From Spirochaetia bacterium (lineage in GTDB: Bacteria; Spirochaetota; Spirochaetia; UBA9216), in NCBI GenBank assembly GCA_965140585.1, contig OZ223269.1, positions 384,001-448,000 on the forward strand: DNA of 64,000 nt. Direction: 5' to 3'. The position numbers and the translations under genes are program-made. The notes under the pieces were generated by a model that had not been told where the DNA came from, made no database searches, and worked only from the letters and a program-made list of their open reading frames with translations. Shown in pieces: positions 4,855-48,681 of this stretch (position 1 is its first letter; the number at the start of each line of letters is the position of its first letter).

Positions 4855-4857
4855 GTA

Positions 4858-5444: not shown

Positions 5445-6039
5445 ACATTTTCTCCCTGGTGGCTTTCACTGCTTCAATGAAGATTGTTCGTTCTTTTACC
5501 TTCAATTTGTACAATCTTTTGTGATAATCCTTACCATCGGCTTGCAGTTCGTAGATAAAAGCTTTTATGTTCGTTTCTGCAGCTGTTTTGTCATTGATTG
5601 AGGATAATTCAAGATTTGATTGTATTTGATGCTCAAGTTCGGTTATCACACTCTGACATAGAAAGGTATTATTGATTATGTCGAATTGTTCATCATCATA
5701 GGCGAAGAAATCAAGTATTTCACTGTCATAGACCATCTTATCTTTCTTCTGGGCTTTCCTGTTGAATAGAAAGTTCCAGGTCATTTTGTAGGTGTAAGTA
5801 TATGGATTCTCAATATAGAAGTCCGGTCGACCGAGGTAGTATTCATACAGCAGGAATTCTACTTCTTCCCAAATTTCACCATACTTGGAATAACTCAATG
5901 AAAAGTTGGTTTTATTTGTGATGATAGAGATTATTTTAGCATAAAGGGGTTTAAAGCAGTTAATGAGGGTTATGAGGTTGGAATCGGAAGGATTAGAAAT
6001 GTAATTGTTTTGATGCTGTAAAATCTCTCTTGTTGTCAC
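5425..6039 (-). CDS. Hypothetical protein with a sigma-70 region-2-like segment (possible phage late activator)
   Basis: LINCFKPLYAKII...EIWEEVEFLLYE...NPYTYTYKMTWNFLFNRKAQKK resembles ECF sigma region 2. The gene overlaps and lies upstream of the HNH gene. Confidence 0.45.
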   Translation of the reverse strand: MTTREILQHQNNYISNPSDSNLITLINCFKPLYAKIISIITNKTNFSLSYSKYGEIWEEVEFLLYEYYLGRPDFYIENPYTYTYKMTWNFLFNRKAQKKDKMVYDSEILDFFAYDDEQFDIINNTFLCQSVITELEHQIQSNLELSSINDKTAAETNIKAFIYELQADGKDYHKRLYKLKVKERTIFIEAVKATREKMYEKAVS

Positions 6040-6111
6040 TTAAAGCCTTATCAATCGTTCTGTCCATATAATAAAGCCTGTTGTAGTGACATTTCCTTAT
6101 AGAGATTGACA
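6013..6111. repeat. ~99-bp direct repeat, copy 1
   Basis: Aligns ungapped to 8376..8474 with 11 mismatches by manual count. It covers the upstream region and first codons of 5425..6039. Confidence 0.92.
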
Positions 6112-6288
6112 ATATTCTTTCTAAATCAAGATTTTTAGTTCAGAAAGATTAGGTACACAATCCTTTAGACTTCATGCACATAAAAAGTATACATAGTAAC
6201 AACCTGTAAAAGTACTTTTAACTTATCTTTTTGCCTAATTCGATAAATAGTTTGACAATTATCCAACTCTCACTTAAAATTTCTTAAT

Positions 6289-8301
6289 GTGTCAAATATA
6301 AAGAAAACTCAAGACTTTTATAATGAAGTTCTATATTGTATAGTCTTGTGTTCTGTTGTATATACTAATGAAAAAATAACTGATTTAGAAATAGTTGAAG
6401 CAAATTCAAAATTTGCAACATTAACAGGAATAATTCCGTCTATTGGTTTAAGAGCCAGTAACGTAATACCAACCCTATTTTTACATGAATCTGAATTAAT
6501 AAAGAAAATAGATCGTGTAATAAAATCCGGAAAGTCTGAAAAGTTTGAACAGTATATTGAATCATCTGATTTATGGGTTAGAATCAATCTTTTTAAGAAT
6601 AATGACCATTCTTTCTATGCTGCTCTTGAGAATATATCTGAATTAAAACAAATCGAGAATGATAATTATTTATTGGAGAGTAACCTCCGAAAGGCTCAAA
6701 TTTTCGCTAATATGGGGAGCTGGCAGTGGGATATTAAGCATGACAAAGTAAAGTGGTCAGAGGGGATGTTTGAAATCTTTGGTGTCGAAAAAGAGAACTG
6801 GGTAAGTGATATTCCAAGCATTATCAATAAATATATCTATAAAGATGACCGTGAAAAAGTAGTAAAAATCCTTTCAAATATAAAGAAGACGAAGAACACA
6901 GAAATTGTTGAATACCGAATCATACGACAATCTGATAAGGTTATTCGAACAGTCTTAACAGAAGGAAAGGAATTGATTCTTGATTCTGATAATCAACCTA
7001 AAATGCTCTCAGGTTATGTAATTGATATTACGGAGAAAAAAAATGCTGAATTTGAGAAAAATACTACAATACAATTTTTACAAATAATTAATAAATCAAC
7101 AGGCATAGAAGTTTTACTTAAGGATATTACACAGTTTATTCATTTGACTACTGGTTGTGAGGCTGTAGGCATCCGGTTAAAAAAAGGTGAGGATTATCCA
7201 TATTACGAAACTAGAGGTTTTGATAATGATTTTATAAAAGCTGAAAATACATTATGCAGATTAGATGAAAATGGAGATCTTATAAGAGATAAGGATTATA
7301 ACCCAGTTCTCGAATGTATGTGTGGAAATATACTTTGTCGAAGATTTGATTCAAAAAAAGATTTTTTTAGTGATTTTGGAAGTTTTTATTCTAATTCCAC
7401 TACAAAATTGTTGGCTACAACTACGGATGCAGATCGCCAGGCAAGAACAAGAAATAGATGTAATGGGGAGGGGTATGAGTCCGTTGCGCTCATCCCACTA
7501 CTTTCGGACAAGAAGGTACTTGGATTATTACAAATTAATGATCGTCATGAAAATATGTTCAATCCTGAACTCATACAAATGTGGGAACGATTGGCAGGGT
7601 ATCTATCTATTGCCATCAGAAAACTTCAAGTTGAAGAACAGTTATCACAGAAATTGAAAGATAGAGAGGTTTTATTATCCGAGATTCATCATAGGGTAAA
7701 GAATAATTTACAAATAATCATTTCACTTTTAGCTCTGCAGAAAGAAAACTCAAGTAATGACGAATTGCATGATCTTTTAAATATTAGTTGTTCAAGAATA
7801 TTTTCAATGTCTTTAGTGCATGACTGTCTTTATAATTCAAAAGATTTTGAACATATTTCGCTTACACAATATATCAATTCATTAGTCTCATATATTGATG
7901 GAGAAACTTTAGATCTGAATCAGAAAATTGACTATCATATCGACACTTGCGACGAACACTTATCGATTGAAATTATGGTTCCACTTGGTTTGATTATCAA
8001 TGAATTGATAGCAAATTCCATACAACATGCGTTTATTCAGATTAAAAAACCAGAAATAGTAATACAGATAAAAAGAATTTCAGATGATGGGTTAAAGTTT
8101 ATCTATCGCGATAATGGTTGTGGGATACCTAATAATGATAGATTGGAATTGAAAAAATCAATAGGATTGTCTCTTATACGGAATCTTACTGAGCAAATTG
8201 GTATTATAGAATCTTCAACTATGAGCATAGGCTATGAATATTCATTTAAAATTGCTGTTAATCAAATGTCACGTTCAAACTATAGAAGTGATAAATATTA
8301 G
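6289..8301 (+). CDS. Cytoplasmic PAS-PAS-GAF HisKA_2 histidine kinase
   Basis: AQIFANMGSWQWD PAS_3; Cys-rich GAF ending GYESVALIPL; EIHHRVKNNLQII; ELIANSIQHAF; DNGCG. Confidence 0.9.
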   Translation: MSNIKKTQDFYNEVLYCIVLCSVVYTNEKITDLEIVEANSKFATLTGIIPSIGLRASNVIPTLFLHESELIKKIDRVIKSGKSEKFEQYIESSDLWVRINLFKNNDHSFYAALENISELKQIENDNYLLESNLRKAQIFANMGSWQWDIKHDKVKWSEGMFEIFGVEKENWVSDIPSIINKYIYKDDREKVVKILSNIKKTKNTEIVEYRIIRQSDKVIRTVLTEGKELILDSDNQPKMLSGYVIDITEKKNAEFEKNTTIQFLQIINKSTGIEVLLKDITQFIHLTTGCEAVGIRLKKGEDYPYYETRGFDNDFIKAENTLCRLDENGDLIRDKDYNPVLECMCGNILCRRFDSKKDFFSDFGSFYSNSTTKLLATTTDADRQARTRNRCNGEGYESVALIPLLSDKKVLGLLQINDRHENMFNPELIQMWERLAGYLSIAIRKLQVEEQLSQKLKDREVLLSEIHHRVKNNLQIIISLLALQKENSSNDELHDLLNISCSRIFSMSLVHDCLYNSKDFEHISLTQYINSLVSYIDGETLDLNQKIDYHIDTCDEHLSIEIMVPLGLIINELIANSIQHAFIQIKKPEIVIQIKRISDDGLKFIYRDNGCGIPNNDRLELKKSIGLSLIRNLTEQIGIIESSTMSIGYEYSFKIAVNQMSRSNYRSDKY

Positions 8302-8375
8302 ATTTACAGTTAAAGAATATTCTAATGAATCAATTTATTTTCTTGAAATTTTGCATAAAAAAAGCAATTATTTTT

Positions 8376-8474
8376 ATGCTGTAAAATCTCCCTTATAGTT
8401 ACTTAAAGCCTTATCAATCGTTCTGAACATATAATAAAGACTATTGCAGTGACATTTCCTTATAGAGTTTGGCA
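8376..8474. repeat. ~99-bp direct repeat, copy 2
   Basis: Second copy of 6013..6111. The GTG start is changed to GTA and the homologous frame closes quickly. Confidence 0.92.
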
Positions 8475-8541
8475 CTTATTAACTATTTTAGTTTATTAGA
8501 AAATAGATTGATTAGATGATAGTTTTAATATAAATAGATAA

Positions 8542-8910
8542 CTATTTAACTAATAAACCTTCTATTGTTTTCAACAAATTAGAAAAGATTACGGGTTTAC
8601 TGAAATTTGCATATGATTGAACAGAGACAGCCCTTTCGATAAATTTTTCATTCATAAAGCCGGTAATGAAAATGACAGGAATTGTTTCATCGTTCATGTG
8701 TATTAGCCGGGTTGTTTCAATACCATCAATTGCCCCGGCTAGATTTACATCCATGAGAACAAGTGATGGTTTATAATCTTTGATAAATTCTACAACTTCT
8801 TCTCCTTTTGCAAAAACCTTAATGACATTATACCCAGCTCGAAGTAATCGTAACCTTAAATCGAAGGCGATTAAACCTTCATCTTCAACTATGATAATTG
8901 CTTCATTCAT
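8542..8910 (-). CDS. Stand-alone response regulator receiver
   Basis: IIIVEDEGLIA, LVLMDVNL, IFITG, KP. Confidence 0.92.
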   Translation of the reverse strand: MNEAIIIVEDEGLIAFDLRLRLLRAGYNVIKVFAKGEEVVEFIKDYKPSLVLMDVNLAGAIDGIETTRLIHMNDETIPVIFITGFMNEKFIERAVSVQSYANFSKPVIFSNLLKTIEGLLVK

Positions 8911-8928
8911 TTTTACGTCCCATTAAAA

Positions 8929-9924
8929 TCATTTTCCAAATCTTATTGCACATTTAAATCCTTCTTTGCTCTCAATAACCACGTTACCCTGCAATTGATA
9001 TTTTACGAGCAGGTCAATGGAATTTAATCCAAATGACTTATTTGCAGAGCTACTGAGATCGGCAGGTATACCAATACCATTATCTGAATAAATTATATCA
9101 ATATTATTCATTTCAGGATTATAATCCAAATATACAGAAATTTTACCTCCTGTATTATCCGGAAATGCATATTTTAAAGTATTTATAAACAATTCATTTA
9201 GAATCAATCCACATGGTATAGCTTTTGTAATTGATAAATAGACATCTGATAGCTGATAATCGATTTCAATGTTATTTTGCTCGATTGAAAAACTGGAGAG
9301 CAAATTGGAAAACATGTTTACAATATAATCTTTCAAGTTAATTTCTGACAAATTATTCGATTCATACAACATTTGATGCACCATTGACATTGCATGAAGT
9401 CGATTTTCAATTTTATTAACAAAATTATCTACTTCCTCTGAATCAATGTAAGAAGCCTGAATGGAGATTAATGAGGAAATTAAAGTCATATTGTTTTTTG
9501 TACGATGATACAGTTCTCGAATCAATAATTCTCTTTCTTCTAAGGAGTCTTTTGTTGATTTAAGTAAATTATATTCTGTAGTTACATCCATACCATACAA
9601 ATTTGCATAAAATGATTTTTTTACAGGTGCTATAGCGAAAGTGTAGAATCTGTTGTTAGAATTTAGATTGATCTTCATCAAGCTATTGTTTTTGATTGAC
9701 TCAATGACGGGTTTAGTAATTAATTCAGAAACTACAAAACCTACCTTTAGATTTAGATCTTGGAGTAAATTTAAGCTAGCATTATTCGCATACAATAAAA
9801 TTCCATTTAAGTTCACCCTCAGTACCGGATAGGGATTTTCAGAGGGAAACCGACTTAACTCAAGAATCTTTTTATTCATTTTAAGGTTTTGCTTTCTGCT
9901 TCTAATAGAACGTTTTTGTTTCAT
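8929..9924 (-). CDS. PAS HisKA_2 histidine kinase
   Basis: FPSENPYPVLRV PAS-like segment; ELYHRTKNNM; ELFINTLKYAF; DNGIG. Confidence 0.88.
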   Translation of the reverse strand: MKQKRSIRSRKQNLKMNKKILELSRFPSENPYPVLRVNLNGILLYANNASLNLLQDLNLKVGFVVSELITKPVIESIKNNSLMKINLNSNNRFYTFAIAPVKKSFYANLYGMDVTTEYNLLKSTKDSLEERELLIRELYHRTKNNMTLISSLISIQASYIDSEEVDNFVNKIENRLHAMSMVHQMLYESNNLSEINLKDYIVNMFSNLLSSFSIEQNNIEIDYQLSDVYLSITKAIPCGLILNELFINTLKYAFPDNTGGKISVYLDYNPEMNNIDIIYSDNGIGIPADLSSSANKSFGLNSIDLLVKYQLQGNVVIESKEGFKCAIRFGK

Positions 9925-10143
9925 ATTAATAGAATAATAAATAGGATATCATAATTCTACTATTCCTTGATTTTCTGCATATATTTTTATGGATTTCTAA
10001 ACGGTTATCTTCAATGAGGTTATTTGTATGAGAACAGGAAATGATCACTCTTACCAAAAAACAGAAGATCTTGGGTAGTAATATTCACAATATGCTCATC
10101 TTCTTATAAAATACAACCAAAAGATGTATATTAAGGAATTCCC

Positions 10144-10539
10144 ATGATAAAAAGAGCTGTATTGATATTTCTTATGATTTTTTGTGTAGAAAGCCTTTTT
10201 TCTGCAGATCTCTTCATGTACAAGTACAATAATGAAGTAATATACGCTGCAGCCATTCAAAAAATAAACAATATAGAGGGTGAATATATTGTTGGGTTGC
10301 TTGAGATCAATACCTCCGGAGATGAATGGTGGACCATATCAACTCATTCATATATAGATAAGGATTTTAACATCATTTCGAAAATAGATTTAAATTTCCC
10401 AACATTGAGGTTTAACGGTCCCTATCTTGATGCCCAGATAAACAGCCGAAATAATACGATTTTACATATGGAGAAAGTTGAAACCATATTATACAAAGGC
10501 TGCGACATTAAACTTCCTGATATATTCAACCAACAATAA
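10144..10539 (+). CDS. Hypothetical secreted protein
   Basis: AAGGA RBS and signal-peptide-like N-terminus; no recognised motif. Confidence 0.55.
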   Translation: MIKRAVLIFLMIFCVESLFSADLFMYKYNNEVIYAAAIQKINNIEGEYIVGLLEINTSGDEWWTISTHSYIDKDFNIISKIDLNFPTLRFNGPYLDAQINSRNNTILHMEKVETILYKGCDIKLPDIFNQQ

Positions 10540-11113
10540 GGATTTTATATTGAAACAGGCATTTTCTCAAATCAATTCATTTCAGTCCAACATTACTGAT
10601 TATAAATATTGTCCATGTTGTGGTAAAGAGCTCATATCGGATACGAATAATAGCTGTCCATCATGCAAGTTTATTCAGTACAAGAATCCTCTTCCTGGAG
10701 TTTCTGTCTTAATAGAAAATTCCAACAATGAAATATTGGTGGGAAGAAGGAGAGGTGATCATGATCTTTGGTGTATGCCGTGCGGATTTATTGAAACAAA
10801 TGAGAATTTTCTACAAGCCGGGCATCGAGAAGTCTTTGAAGAAACAGGATTAAAGATAGAAATCAAATCAATAATAAATGTTACAACAAATATTATAAGA
10901 GCCGATCTCGAAACTCTGGTTGTCGTTCTTTATGCCTCTGTTGTATCAGGGAACATGGAGGCTGGTGATGATATTACTAAATTAGTATGGGTTAACTCCC
11001 AAAAAATCCCTCGATTAGCATTTAATTCTGATAAGTATATTATTGGTGAATATTTTAAAGGAAAGTTGGAGTTTTTAAGCGTTGATGAAGCTTTTAGACG
11101 TCAAATCCAGTGA
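10478..11113 (+). CDS. NUDIX hydrolase with N-terminal zinc ribbon (true start probably downstream)
   Basis: YCPCCG...CPSC..QYKNP; Nudix box GFIETNENFLQAGHREVFEETGL. Confidence 0.88.
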   Translation: MKPYYTKAATLNFLIYSTNNKDFILKQAFSQINSFQSNITDYKYCPCCGKELISDTNNSCPSCKFIQYKNPLPGVSVLIENSNNEILVGRRRGDHDLWCMPCGFIETNENFLQAGHREVFEETGLKIEIKSIINVTTNIIRADLETLVVVLYASVVSGNMEAGDDITKLVWVNSQKIPRLAFNSDKYIIGEYFKGKLEFLSVDEAFRRQIQ

Positions 11114-11548
11114 TTATTTAATATTCTTCTGTTTATTAGTTGTTTTTTGTGTTTCAACAACAGGCTCACTATTTTTTTCACTTAAAGCAGAAAGTATCGA
11201 GTAGGCAAATTGCTTATTACCAATCGGTTTTGTTAAAATCATATTTGGTTGAATATCTGATAGCCTCTCTGAAAGACTATCATTATGAGCATCGACGATA
11301 AAAATGACCTTTATGGAGTCATCAATCTCAAGCATCTTTTTCACTGTTTCAGTTGCCAGGTTTTCATCATTTTTTTCTACATCAACTATGATTAAATCAG
11401 GTCTATTCAATTTAAATTCTCTTTTTGCCTGGTTATAATCTGAATAAATTTTATCAACTTTTAAGCCCAGAGCATGTATCCTGATTTTCATATCAATGGC
11501 TAGCGGAAAGTCTCTTTCAATTACCATTATCTTGTCTATACTTCTCAA
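11114..11548 (-). CDS. Atypical stand-alone receiver domain
   Basis: KIMVIERD, PDLIIVDV and TKP are present. The conserved Thr/Ser position reads IFIVD. Confidence 0.7.
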   Translation of the reverse strand: MRSIDKIMVIERDFPLAIDMKIRIHALGLKVDKIYSDYNQAKREFKLNRPDLIIVDVEKNDENLATETVKKMLEIDDSIKVIFIVDAHNDSLSERLSDIQPNMILTKPIGNKQFAYSILSALSEKNSEPVVETQKTTNKQKNIK

Positions 11549-11749
11549 GGGTTGCTCCTTTTGAAATTAAATATTAAAGAAATAAGTGGAAGGCAAAGAA
11601 GAAATGCAGTAATTAAATTTTAATATTTCATTACCTGAAAGTCAAATTGGTATATCATGATATAACTCTTCTTAATGTCCGAATTGAAATTTTATACTTT
11701 TGAGATAATTTCTTTAATGTAATCGTTTGTTTGGCTCCAGGCGTTGAGC

Positions 11750-12535
11750 CGGATAGTTTCAAGTGCCGGAGGCGCAAGGTCGAGAAATTTTCGATGGAAC
11801 AGTTAATCATGGTCCTGATTACACATACTGGCTTTTAAAGTTCGATTCAGATAATAACAGCGATAAGGATAATATTGATCCTGTATGAATGCCTGTACTT
11901 GAATATATTTACAGTTTGCTTGCAAAAATGCAGGAATAGAGATGCCGGAAACAGATTTGGTTTCGGCCGGCAGCACGCGTCATTTTCTTATTGAGCCTTT
12001 CGACAGGATTGTAAGAAACAAGAGGCTTGATAAACTTCATTATGTGTCATGGGCAGGCCTGGCTCATGCGGATCGTGATGCAATTAATTCATATGAGCAG
12101 TTAATTCTTCTTTTACGGAAGATGAAGATTGGGCAGGAGGCTGAAACGCAGCTCTTCCGGAGGGCTGTATTTAATATAATTGGAAGAAATCATGATGAGC
12201 ATACAAAAAATACTGATTTCCCAATGGATAGGAGGGGGACGTGGAAACTTTCGCCAGCATTTGATATAACTTATTCATATGATCCGTTCGATCGATTCAC
12301 AATAAATCATCAATGCCGGCTGAACAGCAAAGATAATGATTTTGAGTATGATGATTTGATAAAATTCGGACGTTACTGTAATTTGAGTGAAAACAGAGCA
12401 GGGAAGATAATTAAACAGATTGGTAATGTCTTTTCCGAATTCCCGGGGCTTGCTTCAGATTATGATTTATCAGAACCATTAAAGCTGACTGTTGAGAAAA
12501 ATCTCCGGCTCAGGTTGCTGTTAAAAAAAGTATAA
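11750..12535 (+). pseudogene. hipA: HipA-family toxin kinase, 5'-truncated and disrupted
   Basis: Upstream fragments SAGGAR, YWLLKFD and EYIYSLLA are separated by frameshifts and a stop. The ORF has FLIEPFDR, FNIIGRNHDEHTKN and WKLSPAFDIT. Confidence 0.8.
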
Positions 12536-33844: not shown

Positions 33845-33898
33845 TTCCCGAACTTCATCAGGGTTGTTTTTTTGCCCTTTTTCCGGTATGGTCAAGCC

Positions 33899-35530
33899 AT
33901 GTTAACTGTTAGCGATGTCTCCCTTTCTTTCGGCGAAAGGGCTCTTTTTAAAGACGTAAATATCAAATTTCTGCCGGGAAACTGTTATGGTGTTATCGGG
34001 GCAAACGGCGCCGGTAAATCGACTTTTCTTAAAATCCTCTCAGGTGAGCTTGAAGCTGACAAGGGAGATATTATTATAGGTCCAGGAGAACGAATGGCCG
34101 TTCTTAAGCAGGACCAGTTCGCCTTTGATGAATATTCACTGCTTCATACCGTTATAATGGGTCATCAGAAACTCTATGAAGTTATGACTGAAAAAGATGC
34201 CATCTATGAAAAGGCTGATTTTACTGAAGCAGACGGACTTCGAGCTGCTGAGCTTGAAGGTGAATTTGCTGAAATGAACGGCTGGGAGGCAGAAAGTGAA
34301 GCCGCTATTCTTCTAAGCCAGCTTGGAATATCCGAGGATCTTCACTACAAGGACATGAAAGACCTGGAGAGTAACCAGAAGGTACGAGTTCTTCTGGCTC
34401 AGGCCCTTTTCGGAAATCCTGACATCCTTCTTCTCGATGAGCCCACCAACAACCTGGATCTTGAATCAATTGCATGGCTTGAAGAGTTCCTTTATAAGTT
34501 TGACAACACCGTTATTGTAGTCTCACACGACAGACACTTTCTTAACAGGGTATGCACTCATATAGCAGATGTTGATTTCGGAAAGATTAAACTATTTGTT
34601 GGAAACTATGACTTCTGGTACTTGGCAAGCCAGCTTGCCCTGAAGCAGATGAAAGACGACAAGAGAAGACGTGAAGACAAGGTTGCGGAACTCAAGGAGT
34701 TTATTCAGCGCTTCAGTTCAAATGCGTCAAAGGCCAAGCAGGCAACCAGCCGTAAAAAGCTTATTGATAAACTTACTATAGATGATATCGAACCTTCCTC
34801 AAGGAAGTTTCCCTATGTTGAGTTTAAGCCTGACAGGGAGCCTGGAAATAATATACTCACTATTGATGGCCTGAATAAAACCGTTGACGGTGAGCATGTA
34901 CTTAAAGATTTCAGCCTGACAATGAACCGTGATGACAAGATCGCCTTTGTTGGCCCCATGCACAGCACTAAGACCGCGCTGTTCGACATCCTTTCAGGCA
35001 ATATCGAAGCTGATTCAGGTGAATTCAACTGGGGCGTTACCATAACTACCTCATACTTTCCGAAAGACAATTCAGAATTTTTTGATGTCGATATGTCGAT
35101 TGTAGACTGGCTGACCCAGTACAAGATTGATGATGAAACCGATGTCAGAAGCTTTCTGGGACGGATGCTTTTCAGCGGTGAAGAATCACTTAAAAAGGTC
35201 AAGGTTCTTTCCGGAGGCGAGAAGGTCCGCTGTATGCTCTCAATGATGATGCTCAAGGGCGCCAACGGCCTTATTATGGATGAACCGACAAACCATCTGG
35301 ACCTTGAATCTATAACAGCACTAAACAATGCGCTTATCAAGTTCCCGGGAGTTTTAATGTTCAACTCTCATGACCACCAGTTTGTTCACTCAATAGCCAA
35401 CAGGATTATAGAGTTCACTCCCGAGGGTATAATTGACCGGATGATGCCGTTTGACGAGTACCTTGCAAGCGAGGATGTCAGAAACCTCCGAGACTCAATG
35501 TGGCATGGTCATCACGGCCTTGATATCTGA
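33899..35530 (+). CDS. ABC-F family ATPase (YbiT/YkpA-like)
   Basis: Two ABC domains and no TM segment; GANGAGKST, LLDEPTN, VSHDRHFLN, LSGGEKVR. Confidence 0.92.
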   Translation: MLTVSDVSLSFGERALFKDVNIKFLPGNCYGVIGANGAGKSTFLKILSGELEADKGDIIIGPGERMAVLKQDQFAFDEYSLLHTVIMGHQKLYEVMTEKDAIYEKADFTEADGLRAAELEGEFAEMNGWEAESEAAILLSQLGISEDLHYKDMKDLESNQKVRVLLAQALFGNPDILLLDEPTNNLDLESIAWLEEFLYKFDNTVIVVSHDRHFLNRVCTHIADVDFGKIKLFVGNYDFWYLASQLALKQMKDDKRRREDKVAELKEFIQRFSSNASKAKQATSRKKLIDKLTIDDIEPSSRKFPYVEFKPDREPGNNILTIDGLNKTVDGEHVLKDFSLTMNRDDKIAFVGPMHSTKTALFDILSGNIEADSGEFNWGVTITTSYFPKDNSEFFDVDMSIVDWLTQYKIDDETDVRSFLGRMLFSGEESLKKVKVLSGGEKVRCMLSMMMLKGANGLIMDEPTNHLDLESITALNNALIKFPGVLMFNSHDHQFVHSIANRIIEFTPEGIIDRMMPFDEYLASEDVRNLRDSMWHGHHGLDI

Positions 35531-36237: not shown

Positions 36238-37419
<1,182 letters not shown>

Positions 37420-37433
37420 TCCGGAGACTATCA

Positions 37434-38399
37434 ATGGGAAAGAAAGATTTAATTGGAGGTTCCCTCTGGGAACAGTATTCAGATAAAGTAAGCAGCAGAA
37501 TGAATGAGCCTAAATACATGGGTGAAATTACCGAGGCAGAGGCTGCTGCAAAAAATGCTAAGCTGATAGTTGCGGATTACGGAGCTGATGCCTGCGGCGA
37601 CGCTGTTCGTCTGTACTGGATGGTTGACACAGCTACCGATAAAATCCTTGACGCAAGATTTAAGAGTTTCGGCTGCGGAACTGCTATTGCTTCAAGTGAT
37701 GTAATGGCAGAAATGTGTATAGGGCTTACCGTTGATGAAGCAGTAAAAATAACAAACCTTGATGTTGAAAAGAATCTGCGTGATTCACCCGATACTCCTG
37801 CGGTTCCCCCCCAGAAGATGCATTGTTCGGTTATGGCCTACGATGTAATCAAGAAAGCCGCATCATTATACAAGAATGTTGATATGTCTGTTTTCGAAGA
37901 GGAAGAGATTGTCTGTGAATGTGCAAGGGTATCACTCAGTACTATCAAAGAGGTTATTAAACTCAATGATCTCAAGACTGTAGAAGAGATAACCCAGTAT
38001 ACAAAGGCCGGTGCTTTCTGCAAGTCCTGTGTGAAACCGGGCGGCCATGAAGAGAGAAAATTTCATCTTGAAGATATACTGCGCGATACAAGGGCGGAAA
38101 TGGAAAAAGACAGACTCAACGCCGGTCCTGAAGACAAGGCTTTTTCAGAGCTTACTCTGATACAGAAGCATAAGGCTGTAGAAAAGGCAATAGAAGAGTC
38201 AATTCTGCCAATCCTTAATGCTGACGGCGGAAGCGTTGAAGTCGTTGATATGAAAGACGAAGATGATTTTACTAATATTTTCATAAGGTACAAGGGTGCA
38301 TGCGCAGGCTGTGCAGCCAGCAGAACCGGTACTTTTGAGGCAATTAGCGATACTCTTAAAAACAAGGTAGATAAATCAATCAAGGTCCATATATTATGA
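37434..38399 (+). CDS. nifU: Fe-S scaffold NifU (IscU + BFD-like + Nfu domains)
   Basis: CGDA, FKSFGCGTAIASS, PPQKMHCS, VCEC...CKSC, DGG...GACAGC. Confidence 0.93.
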   Translation: MGKKDLIGGSLWEQYSDKVSSRMNEPKYMGEITEAEAAAKNAKLIVADYGADACGDAVRLYWMVDTATDKILDARFKSFGCGTAIASSDVMAEMCIGLTVDEAVKITNLDVEKNLRDSPDTPAVPPQKMHCSVMAYDVIKKAASLYKNVDMSVFEEEEIVCECARVSLSTIKEVIKLNDLKTVEEITQYTKAGAFCKSCVKPGGHEERKFHLEDILRDTRAEMEKDRLNAGPEDKAFSELTLIQKHKAVEKAIEESILPILNADGGSVEVVDMKDEDDFTNIFIRYKGACAGCAASRTGTFEAISDTLKNKVDKSIKVHIL

Positions 38400-39331
38400 G
38401 GGCTGATAATGTCGCCGGACTAATCGGTAATACACCACTTGTTCGTATAAACCGTGTCTGCGGCAGCAATGCCGAGGTTCTTGCTAAACTCGAATATTTT
38501 AATCCGGGCAGTTCTGTAAAAGACAGAATTGCCCTGGCTCTTATAGAGGACGCTGAAAAGCGCGGACTTTTAAAAGAAAACACGGTTATAGTTGAGCCGA
38601 CAAGCGGCAACACGGGAATAGGCCTTGCAATGGTCTGTGCTGTCAGGGGCTACCGGCTTGTTCTAACCATGCCTGATACAATGAGTATTGAACGAAGACA
38701 GGTTCTTGCCGGCTTCGGTGCAGAACTTGTGCTTACGCCCGGAACAGAAGGCATGAAGGGTGCTATCAATAGAGCTGAGCAGATTGCTTCTGAAAGTGAA
38801 TCCTCCTTTATCCCGGGTCAGTTTATTAATCCTTCCAATCCTGATATGCATTACCGGACTACTGCAGCTGAAATCTGGAAAGACAGCAATGGTCTTGTTG
38901 ATATTCTTATTGCCTGTGTAGGAACCGGAGGAACCCTCAGCGGTACTGCAAAGGGTATTAAGGAGCTTAATCCAGATCTTGAAGTTATTGCTGTAGAGCC
39001 GGAAACCTCTCCGGTAATTACTCAGAAGCTGGAAGGTAAAGTGCTGAAGCCCGGAAGTCATAAGATTCAGGGAATAGGCGCCGGCTTTATTCCTGATAAC
39101 CTTGATCTCTCCATTGTAGACAGTGTTATAAAAGTAAAAGACAATGATGCCATGGATTTCTCAAGAAGACTGATGAAAGAAGAGGGCATCTTCTGCGGGA
39201 TATCAGCAGGTGCTGCTGCATACGCAGCCTTTCAAACTGCATCGCTTCCTGAAAATAAAGATAAAACAATTGTATTCATAGTCCCTGATACCGGTGAAAG
39301 ATATCTTTCTTCCGGACTTTTTACAGAATAA
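38396..39331 (+). CDS. cysK: Cysteine synthase A
   Basis: NPGSSVKDR, EPTSGNTG, GTGGT, HKIQGIGAG, PDTGERYLS. Confidence 0.95.
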   Translation: MRADNVAGLIGNTPLVRINRVCGSNAEVLAKLEYFNPGSSVKDRIALALIEDAEKRGLLKENTVIVEPTSGNTGIGLAMVCAVRGYRLVLTMPDTMSIERRQVLAGFGAELVLTPGTEGMKGAINRAEQIASESESSFIPGQFINPSNPDMHYRTTAAEIWKDSNGLVDILIACVGTGGTLSGTAKGIKELNPDLEVIAVEPETSPVITQKLEGKVLKPGSHKIQGIGAGFIPDNLDLSIVDSVIKVKDNDAMDFSRRLMKEEGIFCGISAGAAAYAAFQTASLPENKDKTIVFIVPDTGERYLSSGLFTE

Positions 39332-39352
39332 ACTCACACCACAGGAGTCAGA

Positions 39353-40249
39353 ATGTCAGAATCGCAAGACATAAAACTTGATTTACAGAAAGTTGTTTCA
39401 GAACTGTGTCAGCCTGAATCATATAAAAGAGTATTCTTTAAATCACATCATCACGACATGCATATGCCTGATGTTGAAGAACTTAAGAAGGCTGTTGAGC
39501 TGCTGCGTTCTGTTCTTTTTCCCGGATATTACATACATACCGAACTGCGGGAAGATACAATGGATTTCTACATCGGTGCAACTCTTGATAAGTGTTACTC
39601 TATTCTTGCTGAACAGCTTCGCCGCGGATTCTGTTTTTCCTGTATAAGTGATTCTGTATGCTCAGTCTGTGAATCAAGTTCACAGAAAGCTGTAAAAGGC
39701 CTTTTTGAAAAATTGCCGTATATCCGACATATGCTGGTCACCGATGCCGAAGCGGCCTACGAAGGCGACCCGGCAGCACGAAGTATCGGCGAGGCTATAT
39801 TCTGCTACCCGAGCATCCGGGCACTTACAAATCATCGTATCGCCCATGAGCTGTATAAACTGGGCGTACCTATTATTCCGCGGCTGATTAGTGAAATGGC
39901 CCACTCCGAAGCGGGAATAGACATTCATCCCGGTGCAACAATAGGCGAGCGGTTCTTTATTGACCATGGAACAGGAACCGTAATAGGAGAAACCTCAATA
40001 ATCGGACGGAACGTAAGGATCTACCAGGGGGTAACTCTAGGAGCAAAGAGCTTTCCAAAAGATGAAGACGGTAACCCCATTAAAAACATTCCCCGCCATC
40101 CGATAGTTGAAGATGATGTGATAGTTTATGCAGGTGCCACAGTTCTGGGCCGTGTAACCATCGGGAAGGGTGTAGAAATCGGTGGTAATGTATGGATTAC
40201 AAGGGATATCCCTGCCGGAGAAAGAGTTCTGCAGCGACGGGGAGATTAA
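39353..40249 (+). CDS. cysE: Serine O-acetyltransferase
   Basis: GDPAA, HRIAH, DIHPGA.IG..FFIDHGTG, RHP. Confidence 0.92.
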   Translation: MSESQDIKLDLQKVVSELCQPESYKRVFFKSHHHDMHMPDVEELKKAVELLRSVLFPGYYIHTELREDTMDFYIGATLDKCYSILAEQLRRGFCFSCISDSVCSVCESSSQKAVKGLFEKLPYIRHMLVTDAEAAYEGDPAARSIGEAIFCYPSIRALTNHRIAHELYKLGVPIIPRLISEMAHSEAGIDIHPGATIGERFFIDHGTGTVIGETSIIGRNVRIYQGVTLGAKSFPKDEDGNPIKNIPRHPIVEDDVIVYAGATVLGRVTIGKGVEIGGNVWITRDIPAGERVLQRRGD

Positions 40250-40501: not shown

Positions 40502-43500
40502 TTGAAAGAATTTGAGCTTTTTTTTAAAAATATGCCGAGTACCAATAAAGCCGCTTTTGTTATTATTCAACACCTGTCTACAAATCACAAAAGTATCCTC
40601 GCGGATATTTTAAGCCGTTATTCAAATATGGAAACACATCAGATTGAGGACGGTATGAAAGTCGAACCGGGGAAAGTATACATTATTCCGCCTAATAATC
40701 TGGTTTTTCTGGAAAATGATAAACTAATTCTGAAAAAACGCTATGATAAGCCTATCGTAAACCAGCCGATTGATGTTTTTTTTAATTCTTTAAAAGAAAA
40801 TAATGCCAGACGTTCAATAGCTGTAATTCTTTCAGGAACAGGTTCTGACGGCTCAGTTGGAATTAAAGCAGTGAAACAAGCAGGAGGGCTTACGTTAGTA
40901 CAGCAGCCGGACACTGCTGATTATGATGGTATGCCAATAATTGCAATAAGGACCGGTCTGATTGATTATGTAATTGCTGTTTCTGACATGCCTGAGGTTA
41001 TCCTTGAATATATAAAAAATGATTTTAAACAGGCTAAATTAATATCGGACGATGAGAATACGGAAAAGGAAATAAATCAGATTTTTGAAATTATTAAAAA
41101 TCATACAGGTCACGATTTTTCAAATTATAAACGTAATACAATAATCAGGATAATTGAAAGGCGCCTCACCGCCAATATAATGGGTAATCTGTCATCATAC
41201 ATTGATTTTTTAAAAAAAGAAGAGCCTGAAATTAAATTGCTTACAAAAGACCTTTTGATAAGTGTAACAAGTTCTTTTAGAGATACAGATACTTTCACTT
41301 ATATTGAAAGAAGTGTCATTCCCGAAATCTTCACGGATAAACAAGGTTGTACTGTTAGAGTCTGGGTTCCCGCCTGTGCAACAGGCGAGGAGGCGTATAC
41401 ATGGGCTTTGATGCTCAAAAATTACATAGATGAGAATGATTTGGAAAATGAGATTCAGGTTTTTGCTTCTGACATTGATACAGAGGCTTTAGATAAAGCC
41501 CGGGAAGGTTTGTATTCCGAGAATATTGTTTCAGATGTACCTGTAAAAATTCTGGAAAGATATTTTATAAAAGAAAGCCGTGGATTCAGAATAAAAAAAG
41601 CAATTCGTGAAACTGTAATATTTGCTGAACAGAATCTTGTGCAGGATCCCCCGTATTCAAGACTGGACATAATCAGCTGCAGGAATCTGCTTATTTACCT
41701 TGATAACTATCTTCAGTATAAGGCAATATCAATATTCCATTATGCTTTAAATAGCAACGGATGTCTGGTTCTTGGAAATTCTGAAAGTCTGGGAAATTCG
41801 GCTAGATTTTATAAGGTGGTAGATAGAAAAAATAAAATTTTTCGAAAAATTGACAGCAGTGAAATGGTGGCTAAGGTATGGAATATGAAAGGCAGAACAG
41901 TTAACTGGATGATAAAAAGACTTTTAAGGAACCTATTTCAGAAATTGTAAAGGATTTTGTTCTTGAAAAATTTGCACCCCCGGGAGTTGTGATAGATGAG
42001 CAGGGTACCATGGTGTTCGCCCTGGGGAAAACCGGGAATTATCTTGAAATTACAACCGGTAATGTAACCAATAATATAACTAAAATGGCAAGAGAGGGGA
42101 TTAAGTTTCCTCTTTCTAATGCTATTCGTAATGCAAGAAAATCAAATTCAGAAGTAATTGTTCACAATGTTAAATTGGATATCAACGGGATATTGATATT
42201 ATAGTCTCTCCATTAAGCTATCAGCAGAAAGATACGAAACTTTTTTTTGTAGTTTTTAAGACTGTGGAACCCTTCAGCAAACAATTGCTGGAAAATAATA
42301 TTAATATACCTGATACATCCGCCATTTTTGAGCTTGAAAAAGAGCTGGCTGAGAAAGAGCAGTATCTTCAGCATACTATCGAAGAACTGGAAACTACTAA
42401 TGAGGAATTAAAATCCTCTAATGAGGAAGCCCAGTCAACTAATGAAGAGTTGCAGAGCACTAATGAAGAACTGGAAACATCCAAGGAAGAGCTTCAGTCG
42501 GTTAATGAAGAACTGACTACAACAAATAATGAGCTTTCGCTGAAACTGGATGAACTTAACAGATTAAATAGTCAGCTTAATAACCTTCTCTCTGCTACAG
42601 AAATTGCAACAATTTTTATAGATAAGGAGCTGAAGATCTTTAATTTTACTCCTGCTATTTCTATCATCACTGAACTACTCATTTCCGATATCGGGCGCTC
42701 AATTAAACAGTTTACCAACAATCTGAAATATAAAAATCTTATACTGGATATTAACTCAGTGCTGAATACTTTAATACCAAAAGAATCGGAAGTTGAAAGT
42801 GTTGACGGCAGATGTTTCTGGATGCGCATTATTCCATACCGTACTATCGATGATAAAATAGAAGGAGTTGTGCTTACTTTTACCGAAATTACCAGGCGTA
42901 TTGAAATTGAAAAGGCCCTGAAAGAAAGCGAAGAAAAATACCGAGAGACCTATGAAAATTCTCCAGACTCGATAATCATCCATGATCTTGATATGAATAT
43001 AGGTGATTTGCAAATATTAAATGGATTTAACGCAACTTTAAAATATCAGAATTATATAAAAAAGGACAGAACAGCGGCGAATTTGAATTTATCAGTAAGC
43101 AGGGTGACAGGAAAACAGCATTGTACAGAGCAATTCGTGTTCATAAGGATTTTAATGTAAGCATGCTTTTTGATATCACAGAAAGAAAGAACGCAATGCA
43201 TGAGCTTAAGGTAAACCAGCTGTTCCTCCAGAAAGCGCAGGAGATTGGAATAATAGGGACCTGGCATCTAAATCTCGAAACTAATGTACTCTTATGGACA
43301 AAGGAGAATTATAAAATATTCGGTATTAAAGAAAATACACCAATCAATTATGAACTTTTTATAAATTGCGTGCATCCTGAAGATCGGGTTTATGTTGATG
43401 CTGAATGGAAAAAAGGCATTGATAAAAAATATTATGATATTGAGCATCGGGTTGTAAGCAATGGTGAAATCAAATGGGTCAGGGAAAAAGCCGATTTTGT

Positions 43501-44302
43501 TTTTGATGATTCGGGAGCCCCTGTCGAGGCCTTCGGCGTTACTCAGGATATTTCCAAAAGTAAAGAATATGAACTTAAATTGAAAGAATATACAGAGCAG
43601 TTAAGTATAATGAATCAGGACAAGGATGATTTTATTTCAATACTTGCACATGATCTTAAAAATCATCTCCATGGTCTTGTAGGCATTTCAAATACAATTT
43701 TAAAGAATTTTGACAACTTTGAAAAATCGAGTATTAAAGAGTATATGAATATGATTCATGAGTCAGCAACAAAGACCAAAAATCTGCTGCTTCAGACACT
43801 TCAATGGGTGAACCCTGAAACAAATGTACTTAAAGAGCAGAAAACTGAATTTTCAGTTTTGGAAGCAGTAAACGCTGAATTGAATCTTTTAATGCCGGTT
43901 GCTGAAACTAAAAATATCAGTATTTCAACGAAGGTTGAACCCGATTTGTTTCTGTATATGAACAAGGGAATTTTTGATGTGGTTACACGTAATATTATTG
44001 GCAACGCAATAAAATTTACACCCAGAGACGGACGAATTGAAATCAGAGCCATAGCAAAGAAAGAGAAGACTAAAATCAGTATTTCCGATACGGGTGTCGG
44101 GATGACAGAGGAAAATATTGGAGATCTTTTCAAATCCACTTTACGTAATTTCAGGCATGGGACTGATGATGAAGAGGGTACCGGACTTGGATTGAGGATA
44201 TGCAACAAACTTTTAAAAACAATAAACAGCAGGATTGAAGTTCAAAGTTCTCCCGGAAAAGGTTCTACTTTCTCATTTTCAATTTCGAATCAATATGAAT
44301 AA
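40502..44302 (+). pseudogene. CheB/CheR-coiled coil-PAS-PAS-histidine kinase hybrid, 5'-truncated and split by frameshifts
   Basis: CheB (IQHL, LSGTGSDG) lacks the GASAGG start. CheR (VWVPACATGEEAY, CRNLLIY), NEELQS heptads and PAS_10 follow, then PAS_3-HisKA (AHDLKN)-HATPase. These are spread over ORFs 40502, 41989, 42264 and 43121 with frame breaks near 41900, 42200 and 43000. Confidence 0.8.
43121..44302 (+). CDS. PAS histidine kinase portion of the hybrid (uninterrupted frame)
   Basis: GTWHLN..VHPEDR PAS; ILAHDLKN; NAIKFT; DTGVG; GTGLGL. Confidence 0.6.
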   Translation: MYRAIRVHKDFNVSMLFDITERKNAMHELKVNQLFLQKAQEIGIIGTWHLNLETNVLLWTKENYKIFGIKENTPINYELFINCVHPEDRVYVDAEWKKGIDKKYYDIEHRVVSNGEIKWVREKADFVFDDSGAPVEAFGVTQDISKSKEYELKLKEYTEQLSIMNQDKDDFISILAHDLKNHLHGLVGISNTILKNFDNFEKSSIKEYMNMIHESATKTKNLLLQTLQWVNPETNVLKEQKTEFSVLEAVNAELNLLMPVAETKNISISTKVEPDLFLYMNKGIFDVVTRNIIGNAIKFTPRDGRIEIRAIAKKEKTKISISDTGVGMTEENIGDLFKSTLRNFRHGTDDEEGTGLGLRICNKLLKTINSRIEVQSSPGKGSTFSFSISNQYE

Positions 44303-44538: not shown

Positions 44539-44568
44539 AAAAAAGCTGCCAGTCAAAGGCAGCTTTTT
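44539..44568. terminator. Bidirectional rho-independent terminator
   Basis: AAAAAGCTGCC-agtcaaa-GGCAGCTTTTT between convergent genes. Confidence 0.8.
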
Positions 44569-44593: not shown

Positions 44594-44959
44594 TTACTTC
44601 ACTTCAGAAACTGTCAGTACATTCTTGTCAGGATCATAAAACTTAAGCATCCGCATATCCTGCTCGGGGAAATCCACTATATCACCGTAAAGTGTAACTT
44701 CTTCGGCAACAAGGTGAGCCTTGAATGCATCTATGTCTTCTATACCGAGTGTCAGAAACTCGTTGACCGGGTAGGTTCCTTCCTTGCTCCACTTGTTAAC
44801 TGCAAGGTAGGTGTTGGTTGTTCCCGGAACCGCAAGTTCAGTCCATCCGTCAGATTCAAATGCTTTTTTGAAGCCTAAAATTGCAGTATAAAAATTAATA
44901 GTTTTTTCAGGATCTCTTGCCCATACATAAGAGATGATGTTTTTATAGCTAAGATTCAT
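44594..44959 (-). CDS. VOC/glyoxalase family protein
   Basis: RDPEKTINFYTAILGF...FYDPDKN; AAGGAG RBS. Confidence 0.85.
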   Translation of the reverse strand: MNLSYKNIISYVWARDPEKTINFYTAILGFKKAFESDGWTELAVPGTTNTYLAVNKWSKEGTYPVNEFLTLGIEDIDAFKAHLVAEEVTLYGDIVDFPEQDMRMLKFYDPDKNVLTVSEVK

Positions 44960-44993: not shown

Positions 44994-46229
44994 TCAGGTA
45001 GGGTAGATTACATTGATGACATTGTCAATTTTTTTCAGTTCAGATTCAAGGCTTTTTAACTGATTTTCGGATAAAGCCTCTGCCTTTGATATTTTCTCAA
45101 GCTTCTTAATTATTGTGTGTACAGCATCAAAACCCTTGCCCAGTGAAAGATCTTTATCAAGCTGCTCTGAAAAGGCGGGATTGATACTATCAATCAGTTC
45201 TCCGGCTGCGATGCTGTCTTCTTTTCCGCCGCCTTTTACCGAATCAATAGCGTTTCTAAAATCATGCAGGATTTTAACCGTCTTATTAAAATGCTCTTCG
45301 GTATAATTCAGCTTCTTCCGGTAATGCCGGTAGGTGAGGAAAAAACGGATTTCTTTCCAGGAGTGACCCTTTTTTACAAGGTCTTCAGGGTAAACGATAT
45401 TGCCCCGGCTCTTGGACATGGAAATTCCGTCAACTACCAGGTGTTCGCCGTGCATGTAGTAGTTTGCATAGTCTTTACCGGAATATCCCTCCATTACTGC
45501 TATATTGTAATCATGGTGGCGGTAAATATTATCAATACCTCCACAGTTTATATCAACCTGATCTCCAAGGGTCATTATTACAATGGCTGGATCCTGAATA
45601 TTCCAGGAAGGACGCCCTTTTCCTATTTCTGTGTCCCAGACAGGCCCGTATTCTTCTCCGTCTGCATGCCACAGTATGAAATCACCTAGGTTCCACCTGT
45701 TACCGTTATAAGTGTCACGACGGAAACGCCTTTTCTCTTTAGGCCAGCGCTTCATATCAAGCTGAAAAAGTTTTCCGAAATTATCAATTTTCAATGGATC
45801 GAAAAAATAATCACCGTCAAGTTCATAGGCAATTCCCTTCTCAACAAGGGTTTTAATAATTTTTACTGTGGAGTCAATGCTTTCTGTAGCTGGAATGAGG
45901 TGTTCCGGCATAACAAAATCAAAGCCGTCCAGACTGTCTCTGAATATAGCAAGCACGTCGCCCGTAAGCTCGTGAACTGCAACTCCCTTCTTTTTAGCTT
46001 CCGAGATGGTTTTATCTTCAATGTCGGTAAGGTTCATCGCCCGTTCAACATGGTAACCGCTGAACTTGAGATACCTTACCAGCAGATCTTCATAAAGAAA
46101 GGTTCTGTAGTTGCCAAGATGAGCTTTCTGATAAATTGATGGTCCGCATGTAAATATTTTTACGTTTTTCCCATTCCTCGGCCTGAATTCCTCAAGCTCC
46201 CTGGCCATGGTGTTATATATTTTAAGCAA
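44994..46229 (-). CDS. Cysteinyl-tRNA synthetase paralog, C-terminally truncated, with non-canonical active site
   Basis: YNTM, CGPSIY..AHLGN, NLTDIEDK, DFILW, GRPSWNIQD, GGIDNIYRHHDYN, SMSKSRGN, HYR; ends after the DALR-like helices at 411 aa. Confidence 0.85.
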   Translation of the reverse strand: MLKIYNTMARELEEFRPRNGKNVKIFTCGPSIYQKAHLGNYRTFLYEDLLVRYLKFSGYHVERAMNLTDIEDKTISEAKKKGVAVHELTGDVLAIFRDSLDGFDFVMPEHLIPATESIDSTVKIIKTLVEKGIAYELDGDYFFDPLKIDNFGKLFQLDMKRWPKEKRRFRRDTYNGNRWNLGDFILWHADGEEYGPVWDTEIGKGRPSWNIQDPAIVIMTLGDQVDINCGGIDNIYRHHDYNIAVMEGYSGKDYANYYMHGEHLVVDGISMSKSRGNIVYPEDLVKKGHSWKEIRFFLTYRHYRKKLNYTEEHFNKTVKILHDFRNAIDSVKGGGKEDSIAAGELIDSINPAFSEQLDKDLSLGKGFDAVHTIIKKLEKISKAEALSENQLKSLESELKKIDNVINVIYPT

Positions 46230-46363
46230 TGTTCATAACCTCGTTTCTATGAATATATACAAAAAAAACTCCAAAGTCGATATAAAAAGAAAGATTAAGA
46301 GCTTTGGATAATTACGTACTGTATTACTCGAAAAAAAAATATATAAGCGTTATACTAATCGTC

Positions 46364-48219: not shown

Positions 48220-48681
48220 ATGATTCCAGCTGATATAAAAGAATTCCTTACGGCAAACGGACTCAAGGCTATTGAGTTCGAGGAAGGAAGTACACCAACA
48301 GCAGAAACTGCTGCATCGATGCTGAAAGTAACAGTAGGGCAGATAGCAAAATCGATATTATTCAAAGGCAAGGATGGTAACTTTTACTTGGTTGTCTGTG
48401 CCGGAGATAAGAAGATTTCTACAGCAAAACTGAAGGCTTTAACAGGAACAAAGACAAGGATGGCAAATGCCCAGGAGCTCTATGACGTTCTTGGTTTCAG
48501 ACCGGGTGAGGTCTGTCCGTTTCGTAAAACAGATATCCCTGTCTATATTGATGTAAGTCTGGCGGAATATGAAACAGTATATCCTGCCGCAGGCAGCGAT
48601 TCGTCAGGTGTTCCTGTATCCTTCGCAGGACTGCTGGATATTACGGGTGCTCTGGAATGCGATGTTACTTCAGAAAGCTGA
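48220..48681 (+). CDS. YbaK/EbsC (INS superfamily) tRNA-editing-like protein
   Basis: TAETAA..L....GQIAKSILF, G..PG.VCPF, AAG. Confidence 0.87.
   Translation: MIPADIKEFLTANGLKAIEFEEGSTPTAETAASMLKVTVGQIAKSILFKGKDGNFYLVVCAGDKKISTAKLKALTGTKTRMANAQELYDVLGFRPGEVCPFRKTDIPVYIDVSLAEYETVYPAAGSDSSGVPVSFAGLLDITGALECDVTSES

Follow-up and report, generated by a model that had tools for sequence, protein, structure and literature searches.

The stretch of DNA analyzed here, hereafter the window, covers 64,000 nucleotides (C6:384001-448000) of the genome of a Spirochaetia bacterium (G000; 4.85 Mb in 10 contigs, 98.5% complete) and carries a shortened paralog of cysS, the gene for cysteinyl-tRNA synthetase (CysRS). 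An earlier description made from the letters of the DNA, the original prediction, had presented this gene as a CysRS relative with a changed zinc and cysteine pocket and without an anticodon-binding domain, and as a candidate for a new adenylating ligase. The gene, its start signals and the motifs of its product are the following.

44994..46229, minus strand: coding sequence of the CysRS-derived paralog, 411 amino acids, TTG start, no internal stop
46239..46242, minus strand: ribosome-binding site GAGG, 9 nucleotides upstream of the TTG, by direct reading of the sequence
46252..46280, minus strand: promoter-like TCGACT-17-TATATT, a consensus match only
46146..46148, minus strand: codon of C28, the retained equivalent of E. 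coli CysRS C28, by alignment
46110..46121, minus strand: HIGH-type motif HLGN, residues 37-40; H37, G39 and N40 are kept in the paralog clade described below
45684..45767, minus strand: connective peptide 1 (CP1) segment, residues 155-182, FQLDMKRWPKEKRRFRRDTYNGNRWNLG, a clade-specific basic and aromatic insertion on the acceptor side
45588..45605, minus strand: WNIQDP, residues 209-214, replacing WHIECS, with D213 at the C209 position
45504..45521, minus strand: RHHDYN, residues 237-242, replacing PHHENE, with H238 kept and N242 at the E238 position
45408..45422, minus strand: KMSKS-type loop SMSKS, residues 270-274; M271, S272 and K273 are invariant in the clade

The frame is uninterrupted, as had been noted, and the start codon is TTG or GTG at the identical residue in 5/5 close relatives. 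The CysRS fold seen in the original prediction was borne out. Indeed, the protein matched Pfam tRNA-synt_1e at 2.1e-70, and its best solved relatives were CysRS 8qhp (1.9e-59) and E. coli CysRS 1li5 (1.4e-58). The structures 3c8z and 8hfm of MshC, the cysteine:GlcN-Ins ligase of mycothiol synthesis, ranked after them (1.1e-36). An AlphaFold2 model made from a 23-sequence alignment had a mean predicted local distance difference test score (pLDDT) of 92.2 and a predicted template modeling score of 0.91; the drop in confidence was confined to residues 161-200, with pLDDT values of 57-87 in the CP1 segment. With this model, Foldseek returned CysRS 8qhp first at a template modeling (TM) score of 0.89, the range being 0.83-0.89 for CysRS and 0.80-0.82 for MshC. 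The protein comprises a Rossmann catalytic domain, the CP1 insertion, a stem-contact fold and a helical bundle.

As predicted, the anticodon-binding domain is gone. The alignment to the cysS model TIGR00435 spans model positions 1-399 of 466, positions 400-466 being unmatched, and the alignment to E. coli CysRS stops at residue 392 of 461; the next gene begins 35 nucleotides past the stop codon. The score against TIGR00435 was 300.7 bits, below the curated cut-off of 340 bits, and that against the MshC model TIGR03447 was 210.3 bits, below its cut-off of 485.1 bits; no curated NCBIfam model was passed by the paralog, which is 28-31% identical to canonical CysRS. Fused long forms of 721-2055 amino acids scoring E<=1e-60 against it were not found, a weak indication that it occurs as a stand-alone protein. 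The gene duplicates cysS in shortened form, and its product has the CysRS fold and intact adenylation motifs.

We aligned the paralog with E. coli CysRS and found four pocket residues retained (C28=C28, T68=T68, W205=W209, H234=H238) and seven changed (H206->N210, E208->Q212, C209->D213, P233->R237, E236->D240, N237->Y241, E238->N242). C28, C209, H234 and E238 are presumably the zinc ligands of the E. coli enzyme. The canonical zinc/thiolate shell WH[IL]EC...HHxNE is not matched by the paralog, in which C28 and H238 are kept and Asp and Asn stand at the positions of C209 and E238. The two specificity motifs are thus altered together, WNIQDP and RHHDYN taking the place of WHIEC and PHHENE, in agreement with the original prediction. 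The resulting metal and side-chain shell consists of C28, D213 and H238 plus N210, Q212, R237, D240, Y241 and N242. The adenylation machinery (HxGN, xMSKS, GGxD) is kept. Both class-I ATP motifs are present as HLGN and SMSKS, and H37, G39, M271 and K273 are common to the paralog and canonical CysRS. Also kept are the substrate-packing Trp and the residues G29 and T68, through which a small amino acid is bound by its alpha-amino group. In PMC7373986, CysRS is described as selecting cysteine through a tight interaction between zinc and thiol.

Conservation and distribution of the paralog clade

A word-indexed protein search yielded 2602 proteins at E<=1e-20 among 8000 scored candidates, and the best 120 were aligned with MAFFT. 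They are 49-100% identical to the paralog and mostly 399-446 amino acids long (one is a 350-residue fragment), and their database names go no further than "class I tRNA ligase family protein" or "cysteinyl-tRNA synthetase"; the names of relatives in the ESM Atlas are likewise generic only. Residues D213, H238, H239, D240, Y241, W209, N210, T68 and D69 were found in 120/120 homologs, Q212 and R237 in 119/120, N242 in 118/120 and C28 in 119/120, the other row having a gap.

An exhaustive search of representative proteins showed a gap in score between full-length members of this group (P0121-P0125, 411-336 bits) and canonical CysRS of about 470 residues with WHIEC (at most 292 bits). We defined the clade by a length of about 405-440 amino acids, the motifs WN[ILV]QD[PA] and RHHDY[NT], and a basic CP1 of the form W-P...R-F..DTY.G.RWN; the window protein (P0001) has all of these. 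A rapidly computed maximum-likelihood tree with 48 rows, rooted at the midpoint, united 15/15 paralog rows as a clade with a Shimodaira-Hasegawa-like approximate likelihood ratio test (SH-aLRT) value of 100; the stem leading to it measures about 1.0 change per site (0.9 plus 0.11). WNIQD and HHDY are therefore conserved as a clade, as the original prediction had proposed to examine. Seven other short CysRS forms of about 405-413 amino acids (e.g., P0138, P0148 and P0139) branched on the canonical side and not within the clade; WHIEC or something close to it is retained in most. These forms without an anticodon-binding domain (P0138, P0139, P0148, P0260 and others) may include CysRS*, a shortened CysRS discussed below, or housekeeping CysRS lacking that domain. 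ESM Atlas clusters of about 400 amino acids also occur in Chloroflexota and archaea.

The clade is under strong purifying selection. Compared with its 96%-identical ortholog at locus L006, the paralog had a ratio of nonsynonymous to synonymous substitution (dN/dS) of 0.088 at a dS of 0.17; the value against L007 was 0.055, with dS saturated at 2.8, and dS was saturated beyond L007 too. The substitutions are thus neither private to this sequence nor under relaxed selection, being clade-wide in the best 120 homologs. These conservation data contradict the view that the gene is a decaying or non-catalytic cysS duplicate under relaxed constraint, and we regard this explanation as highly improbable. 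The loss of the anticodon-binding domain and of two presumed zinc ligands would fit decay. However, the ATP motifs are intact, the pocket motifs are kept down to 49% identity, and the family occurs in many species of several phyla; the idea was rejected on the dN/dS of 0.088.

In a position-by-position comparison of 123 paralogs and 107 full-length canonical CysRS, we looked for residues that occur in 95% or more of the clade and in no more than 5% of the canonical proteins. By this measure, 25 of the 411 positions are clade-fixed and canonical-rare, and 25/25 lie in residues 1-310 (catalytic core and CP1), with 0 in residues 311-411. Another 41 catalytic positions are invariant in both groups, including C28-G29-P30, H37, G39, T68-D69, D72-K73, W209, G230-G231, D233, H238-H239, M271, K273 and S274. 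The pattern W[HS]xEC was used to choose the canonical set, so that its 100% values for E at 212 and C at 213 are built in; unaffected by this choice are the values at 238 (E, 100% of the 107), 233 (P, 95%) and 188 (K, 94%).

The differences were pronounced in CP1. Its net charge averages +6.6 (standard deviation 1.5) in the 123 paralogs versus -1.3 (standard deviation 2.5) in 116 canonical CysRS, and it holds 5.0 aromatic residues versus 0.9. Over the whole aligned protein, the net charge is +8.8 in the paralogs versus -6.9 in the canonical set. Clade-fixed residues of the CP1 region are W162, P163, F169, T173, G176, R178, W179 and H188.

To follow up the suggestion that a canonical cysS be confirmed elsewhere in the genome, we searched it with PF01406. 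A second match of 335.5 bits lies on the contig of the window, in an open reading frame that starts about 14.7 kb past the window end and encodes a canonical CysS of 474 amino acids with WHIECSAM, DIHCGG, HIGN and KMAKS. This sequence also qualifies two details of the original prediction. HLGN is present as the HIGH motif of the paralog and is not peculiar to it, the canonical CysS of the genome having HIGN, and the "new" cysteine near the pocket (C229 in DINCGG) is not new, since this CysS reads DIHCGG, as do many canonical CysRS. The genome has 46 tRNA genes, among them one tRNA-Cys(GCA), plus a transfer-messenger RNA; the window has 0 tRNA genes. No tRNA-Sec-like gene passed the Rfam cut-off in the genome (the best matches were tRNA-Ser genes), no SelB wing domain was found in it, and no protein anywhere in it matched TIGR03447 over the cut-off.

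In an even sample of 151 Spirochaetota genomes, matches of more than 600 bits were found in 3 (G000, G083 and G108), each of which also has a match of canonical strength (304-364 bits). The other genomes gave one match each, none above 404 bits, except for a single genome without a match. In the order of Desulfoferrobacter suflitae (L036), the paralog was present in 55/81 sampled genomes at E<=1e-130. D. suflitae and Salinispira pacifica are examples of cultured carriers. Similarly, 5/5 distant carriers have a canonical PF01406 match of 350-456 bits beside the paralog at 243-260 bits. With a canonical copy in all 8 carriers checked, the paralog adds to cysS and never replaces it. A third PF01406 match was seen in three genomes of Syntrophobacteraceae and Acidobacteriota (G151:C53:233129-234043, G152:C1:5026300-5027208 and G154:C12:18624-19535; 159-300 bits); these frames of about 800-813 amino acids may be another, fused CysRS-like paralog.

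A scan of one genome per species matched at least 599 stretches, 548 of which encode a relative by tblastn, an upper figure because one of the two search patterns could also match canonical genes. Of the 548 loci, 80 were kept (L006 etc.); they are 45-96% identical to the paralog, most near full length and a few partial. They come from Spirochaetota (including Thalassospirochaeta and metagenome-assembled genomes [MAGs] of Leptospira), Syntrophobacteraceae and other Desulfobacterota, and further from an Acidobacteriota MAG, a Dissulfurispiraceae MAG and a few archaeal-labeled MAGs. Records labeled Thermoplasmata or Methanomicrobiales (L049 [CP070751.1], L080 and L082) carry a bacterial-type paralog at 46-48% identity. 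One archaeal-labeled record is a 5.2-Mb "chromosome," and the labels may reflect mis-binning or mislabeling.

Gene neighborhood

Open reading frames within 8 kb on either side of the paralog were clustered for the 80 loci and the window; of these, 75 grouped with the target, and 6 failed to do so. Pfam was run on representatives of 180 of the 247 neighbor clusters (74 loci), with 67 clusters left out. The genes around the paralog in the window are listed here.

44594..44959, minus strand: VOC/glyoxalase-family gene, 121 amino acids, PF00903, 35 nucleotides downstream of the paralog
44540..44568, no strand assigned: GC-rich hairpin with flanking A and T runs, terminator-like, after the VOC gene
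40502-44302, plus strand: CheB-CheR fusion, then PAS and PAS-histidine-kinase open reading frames, between cysE and the VOC gene
36241-40249, plus strand: nifS, nifU-like, cysK and cysE/EpsC-type serine acetyltransferase genes, convergent with the paralog-VOC pair
33872-35530, plus strand: ABC-F family ATPase of a translation-factor-like kind (NF011646, 660 bits, below cut-off)
48220-48681, plus strand: stand-alone aminoacyl-tRNA editing domain, YbaK/EbsC-like (PF04073, below the equivalog cut-off)

The VOC gene adjoins the paralog in 6/75 clustered loci (the window, L006, L008, L009, L011 and L023) and is probably co-transcribed with it. Weak Rfam look-alikes only were found for the hairpin that follows. 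In this lineage, the paralog is divergent from an S-adenosylmethionine-dependent methyltransferase gene and a carbon-nitrogen hydrolase gene, the best NCBIfam look-alike of the latter being deaminated-glutathione amidase, far below its cut-off. On the convergent side, the scores of nifS (606 bits) and cysK (434 bits) exceed the cut-offs, that of cysE suffices for the EpsC model, and nifU falls short of its own. The CheB-CheR/PAS block, common to the window and L006, looks inserted, because the distance between cysE and the VOC gene is 93 nucleotides to about 2.7 kb in L008, L009, L011 and L023. The editing-domain gene lies 2 kb from the paralog, and this neighborhood is kept only in L006, L008, L009 and L023. 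The cysteine and thiol flavor of the region is suggestive and confined to this lineage, with scattered cases elsewhere (cysK in L085, nifS in L022 and nifU in L040).

The comparison of neighborhoods called for in the original prediction therefore gave a divided answer: the unit with the VOC and methyltransferase genes is kept in the lineage of the window (6 loci), and no partner is common to the lineages. No universal neighbor was found across the 75 clustered loci, and the Pfam functions were heterogeneous. Other neighbors that recur within a lineage are a CNNM/CorC transporter in 19 loci (Syntrophobacteraceae), an ABC ATPase in 9 and, in 7 loci, a cluster that had no Pfam match and is patatin-like by sequence reading only. 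Redox and sulfur genes also recur (an OsmC fusion, AhpC, rubrerythrin, DsrE and a rhodanese-reductase, besides the cysK and nifS just mentioned), although an enrichment over the background of anaerobe genomes could not be demonstrated. Rfam detected no riboswitch or T-box upstream of the paralog in the window and 18 loci; a single thiamine pyrophosphate riboswitch that came to light was unrelated. Near the paralog, just one tRNA gene was present among the 80 loci (tRNA-Leu in L074). A bacillithiol-type pathway was considered and found to be without support, BshA and BshC each being over cut-off in 0/5 genomes and a PIG-L deacetylase being present in 4/5. Farther off, positions 1-12000 of the window have a GC content of 0.29-0.34, versus 0.40-0.47 in most of the remainder, and may be a foreign or island segment.

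Candidate reaction and acceptor

The paralog belongs to a real, widely distributed and neofunctionalized family of orthologs that derives from CysRS and works beside the normal enzyme. Given its rebuilt substrate pocket, it very likely performs a different job. On a reading that we hold to be fairly probable, the paralog would use ATP to form the aminoacyl-adenylate of cysteine or of a closely related small amino acid, bound in the pocket through hydrogen bonds or at a harder metal site of the Cys/Asp/His type. The aminoacyl group would then go to an acceptor of anionic character whose recognition does not depend on a tRNA anticodon, the candidates being a phosphorylated or carboxylated small molecule and an RNA end. 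It would thus act as a ligase in the style of MshC or GluQRS and not as a translational synthetase.

As judged from the alignment, the invariant D213 would be able to bind a metal, and C28, D213 and H238 could form a thiolate-binding Cys/Asp/His site. Because this trio could still hold a metal, the odds between cysteine and another small amino acid as the substrate are about even. The simultaneous change of seven shell positions, with R237 and Y241 as new residues, fits a changed or derivatized side chain, and the re-tuned site may select an analogue of cysteine, e.g., one with an oxidized, phosphorylated or amino-substituted beta-substituent, instead of cysteine itself. A CARS-type persulfide synthase was also considered and dropped, the presumed KIIK motif of such enzymes reading KTIS in the paralog.

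In CysRS and MshC, the side of the active site that carries CP1 receives the acceptor. The strongly basic and aromatic rebuilding of CP1 therefore points to an anionic acceptor and suggests either an RNA end or a phosphorylated or carboxylated small molecule, both of which would fit it equally well. Tentatively, and with somewhat less confidence than we place in the ligase reading as such, we propose that the clade is a ligase for a new product, namely, a cysteine-derived low-molecular-weight thiol, another aminoacylated anionic metabolite or an aminoacylated RNA nucleoside, made with a re-tuned Cys/Asp/His site in anaerobic Desulfobacterota and spirochaetes.

MshC offers a parallel with a small-molecule acceptor. 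Like the paralog, it is a CysRS-derived protein of about 410 residues without an anticodon-binding domain (TM 0.80-0.82 to our model), and it transfers the activated amino acid to a non-tRNA acceptor. MshC keeps a WHIEC-type zinc site, however, and the paralog is far from it in sequence (210 bits against a 485-bit cut-off; 1e-36 to MshC versus 1e-59 to CysRS). Unlike MshC, the clade was found, among the 80 loci, in Spirochaetota, Desulfobacterota and others and not in Actinomycetota. From canonical CysS (E. coli 1li5/1u0b, TIGR00435), with which it shares the fold, HxGN, xMSKS and the equivalents of C28, T68, W205 and H234, the paralog differs in the missing domain, the fixed pocket substitutions, a CP1 that is basic and aromatic instead of acidic, a score below cut-off and its coexistence with a true cysS. 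Because the paralog is below both curated cut-offs and in a separate clade, the claim that it is distinct from both normal CysRS and MshC stands.

Truncated synthetase paralogs have each brought new biochemistry to light, namely, a redox buffer (MshC), an RNA modification (GluQRS), a protein modification (EpmA) and a recoding system (CysRS*). The present clade is comparably distinct, its specificity pocket and acceptor site being rebuilt and its members about 50% identical across phyla, and it has no curated family. Identifying its amino acid and acceptor would probably reveal, for sulfate-reducing and syntrophic bacteria, a metabolite or modification that is new, and would also show how the zinc-thiolate selectivity device of CysRS is re-tuned. 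In a review of duplicated synthetases, the part available to us gives CysRS* and MshC as the sole CysRS paralogs (PMC9437257), and a full-text literature search, with most subscription journals outside its scope, found no paper on the clade.

Several points weigh against a new ligase activity. The pocket geometry is read off an alignment, and with no gene partner conserved across lineages, the context reveals no acceptor. After loss of the anticodon-binding domain, a basic CP1 would equally suit a tighter grip on the acceptor stem of a tRNA. Furthermore, CysRS-like proteins with a WHIED motif exist, so Asp alone is no proof of a new substrate. Asp at the C209 position was found in this motif in 7/270 screened proteins, 6 of them of at least 380 amino acids (WHIEDTA in P0147, P0155, P0220, P0227, P0247, P0259 and P0270; 307-858 amino acids, four of 455-474), and 4/7 also have HHECEI, with Cys at position 236. 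Finally, the CysRS* of Desulfobacterales, a second cysS copy without an anticodon-binding domain and with a changed CP1, is reported to charge a tRNA, and its gene lies downstream of selB* and of an 8/4 selC* tRNA-Cys(UCA) (Mukai et al. 2017, PMC5389517).

The last three of these points, together with the retention of C28, H238, W209, T68, HxGN and xMSKS, would fit a second genuine cysteine-tRNA ligase, either an anticodon-independent isoenzyme, such as a metal-sparing or oxidation-tolerant back-up that has a Cys/Asp/His site, or an enzyme for a special tRNA like CysRS*. We consider this unlikely. The genome encodes just one tRNA-Cys(GCA), of the ordinary kind, and lacks both a tRNA-Sec-like gene over the Rfam cut-off and a SelB wing domain. 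No selB or selC neighbor was seen in the 80 loci, where the lone tRNA is the tRNA-Leu already mentioned. Thus, while the paralog resembles CysRS* in its missing domain and in the deltaproteobacterial lineages that include it, the selB*/selC* context is missing from the window, the genome and the 80 loci, and the changes described for CysRS* in the portion of PMC5389517 at hand concern CP1 and the anticodon-binding domain only. In the paralog clade, by contrast, E238, H206 and P233 are replaced by Asn, Asn and Arg, all fixed, and the score against the cysS model is below cut-off.

A back-up enzyme has a precedent in the Zur-regulated CysRS paralogs of beta- and gammaproteobacteria, which likewise are extra cysS copies beside the housekeeping gene; these paralogs are reported to keep the zinc residues and to lie in Zur/COG0523/znu clusters (Haas et al. 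2009, PMC2770081). The clade differs from these paralogs, as described there, in its changed zinc-site residues and in the missing znu/Zur context, a ZnuA-family gene being found near the paralog in one annotated locus only (L025).

GluQRS (YadB), a truncated paralog of GluRS, glutamylates the queuosine of tRNA-Asp. By analogy, the paralog could be an RNA-modifying aminoacyl ligase whose target is a modified nucleoside or another RNA site and not A76 for translation. We regard this as quite unlikely, even though the architecture follows the same logic: in the review of duplicated synthetases, GluQRS is described as a stand-alone class-I core without an anticodon domain and with a scattered gene context (PMC9437257). 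The context of the paralog is similarly scattered and offers no operon partner, a common situation for RNA-modification enzymes, its CP1 is very basic and aromatic and the protein is basic overall. However, GluQRS has another parent synthetase, no co-occurring modification pathway was identified, and RNA binding of the paralog is purely conjectural. The patchy occurrence in 3/151 genomes of the phylum is not what one would normally expect of a core tRNA modification, though the paralog is present in 55/81 genomes of one Desulfobacterota order.

A separate observation concerns the screened proteins with Asp in the WHIED motif. Where this motif is combined with Cys at position 236, the pair looks like a natural relocation of a zinc ligand.

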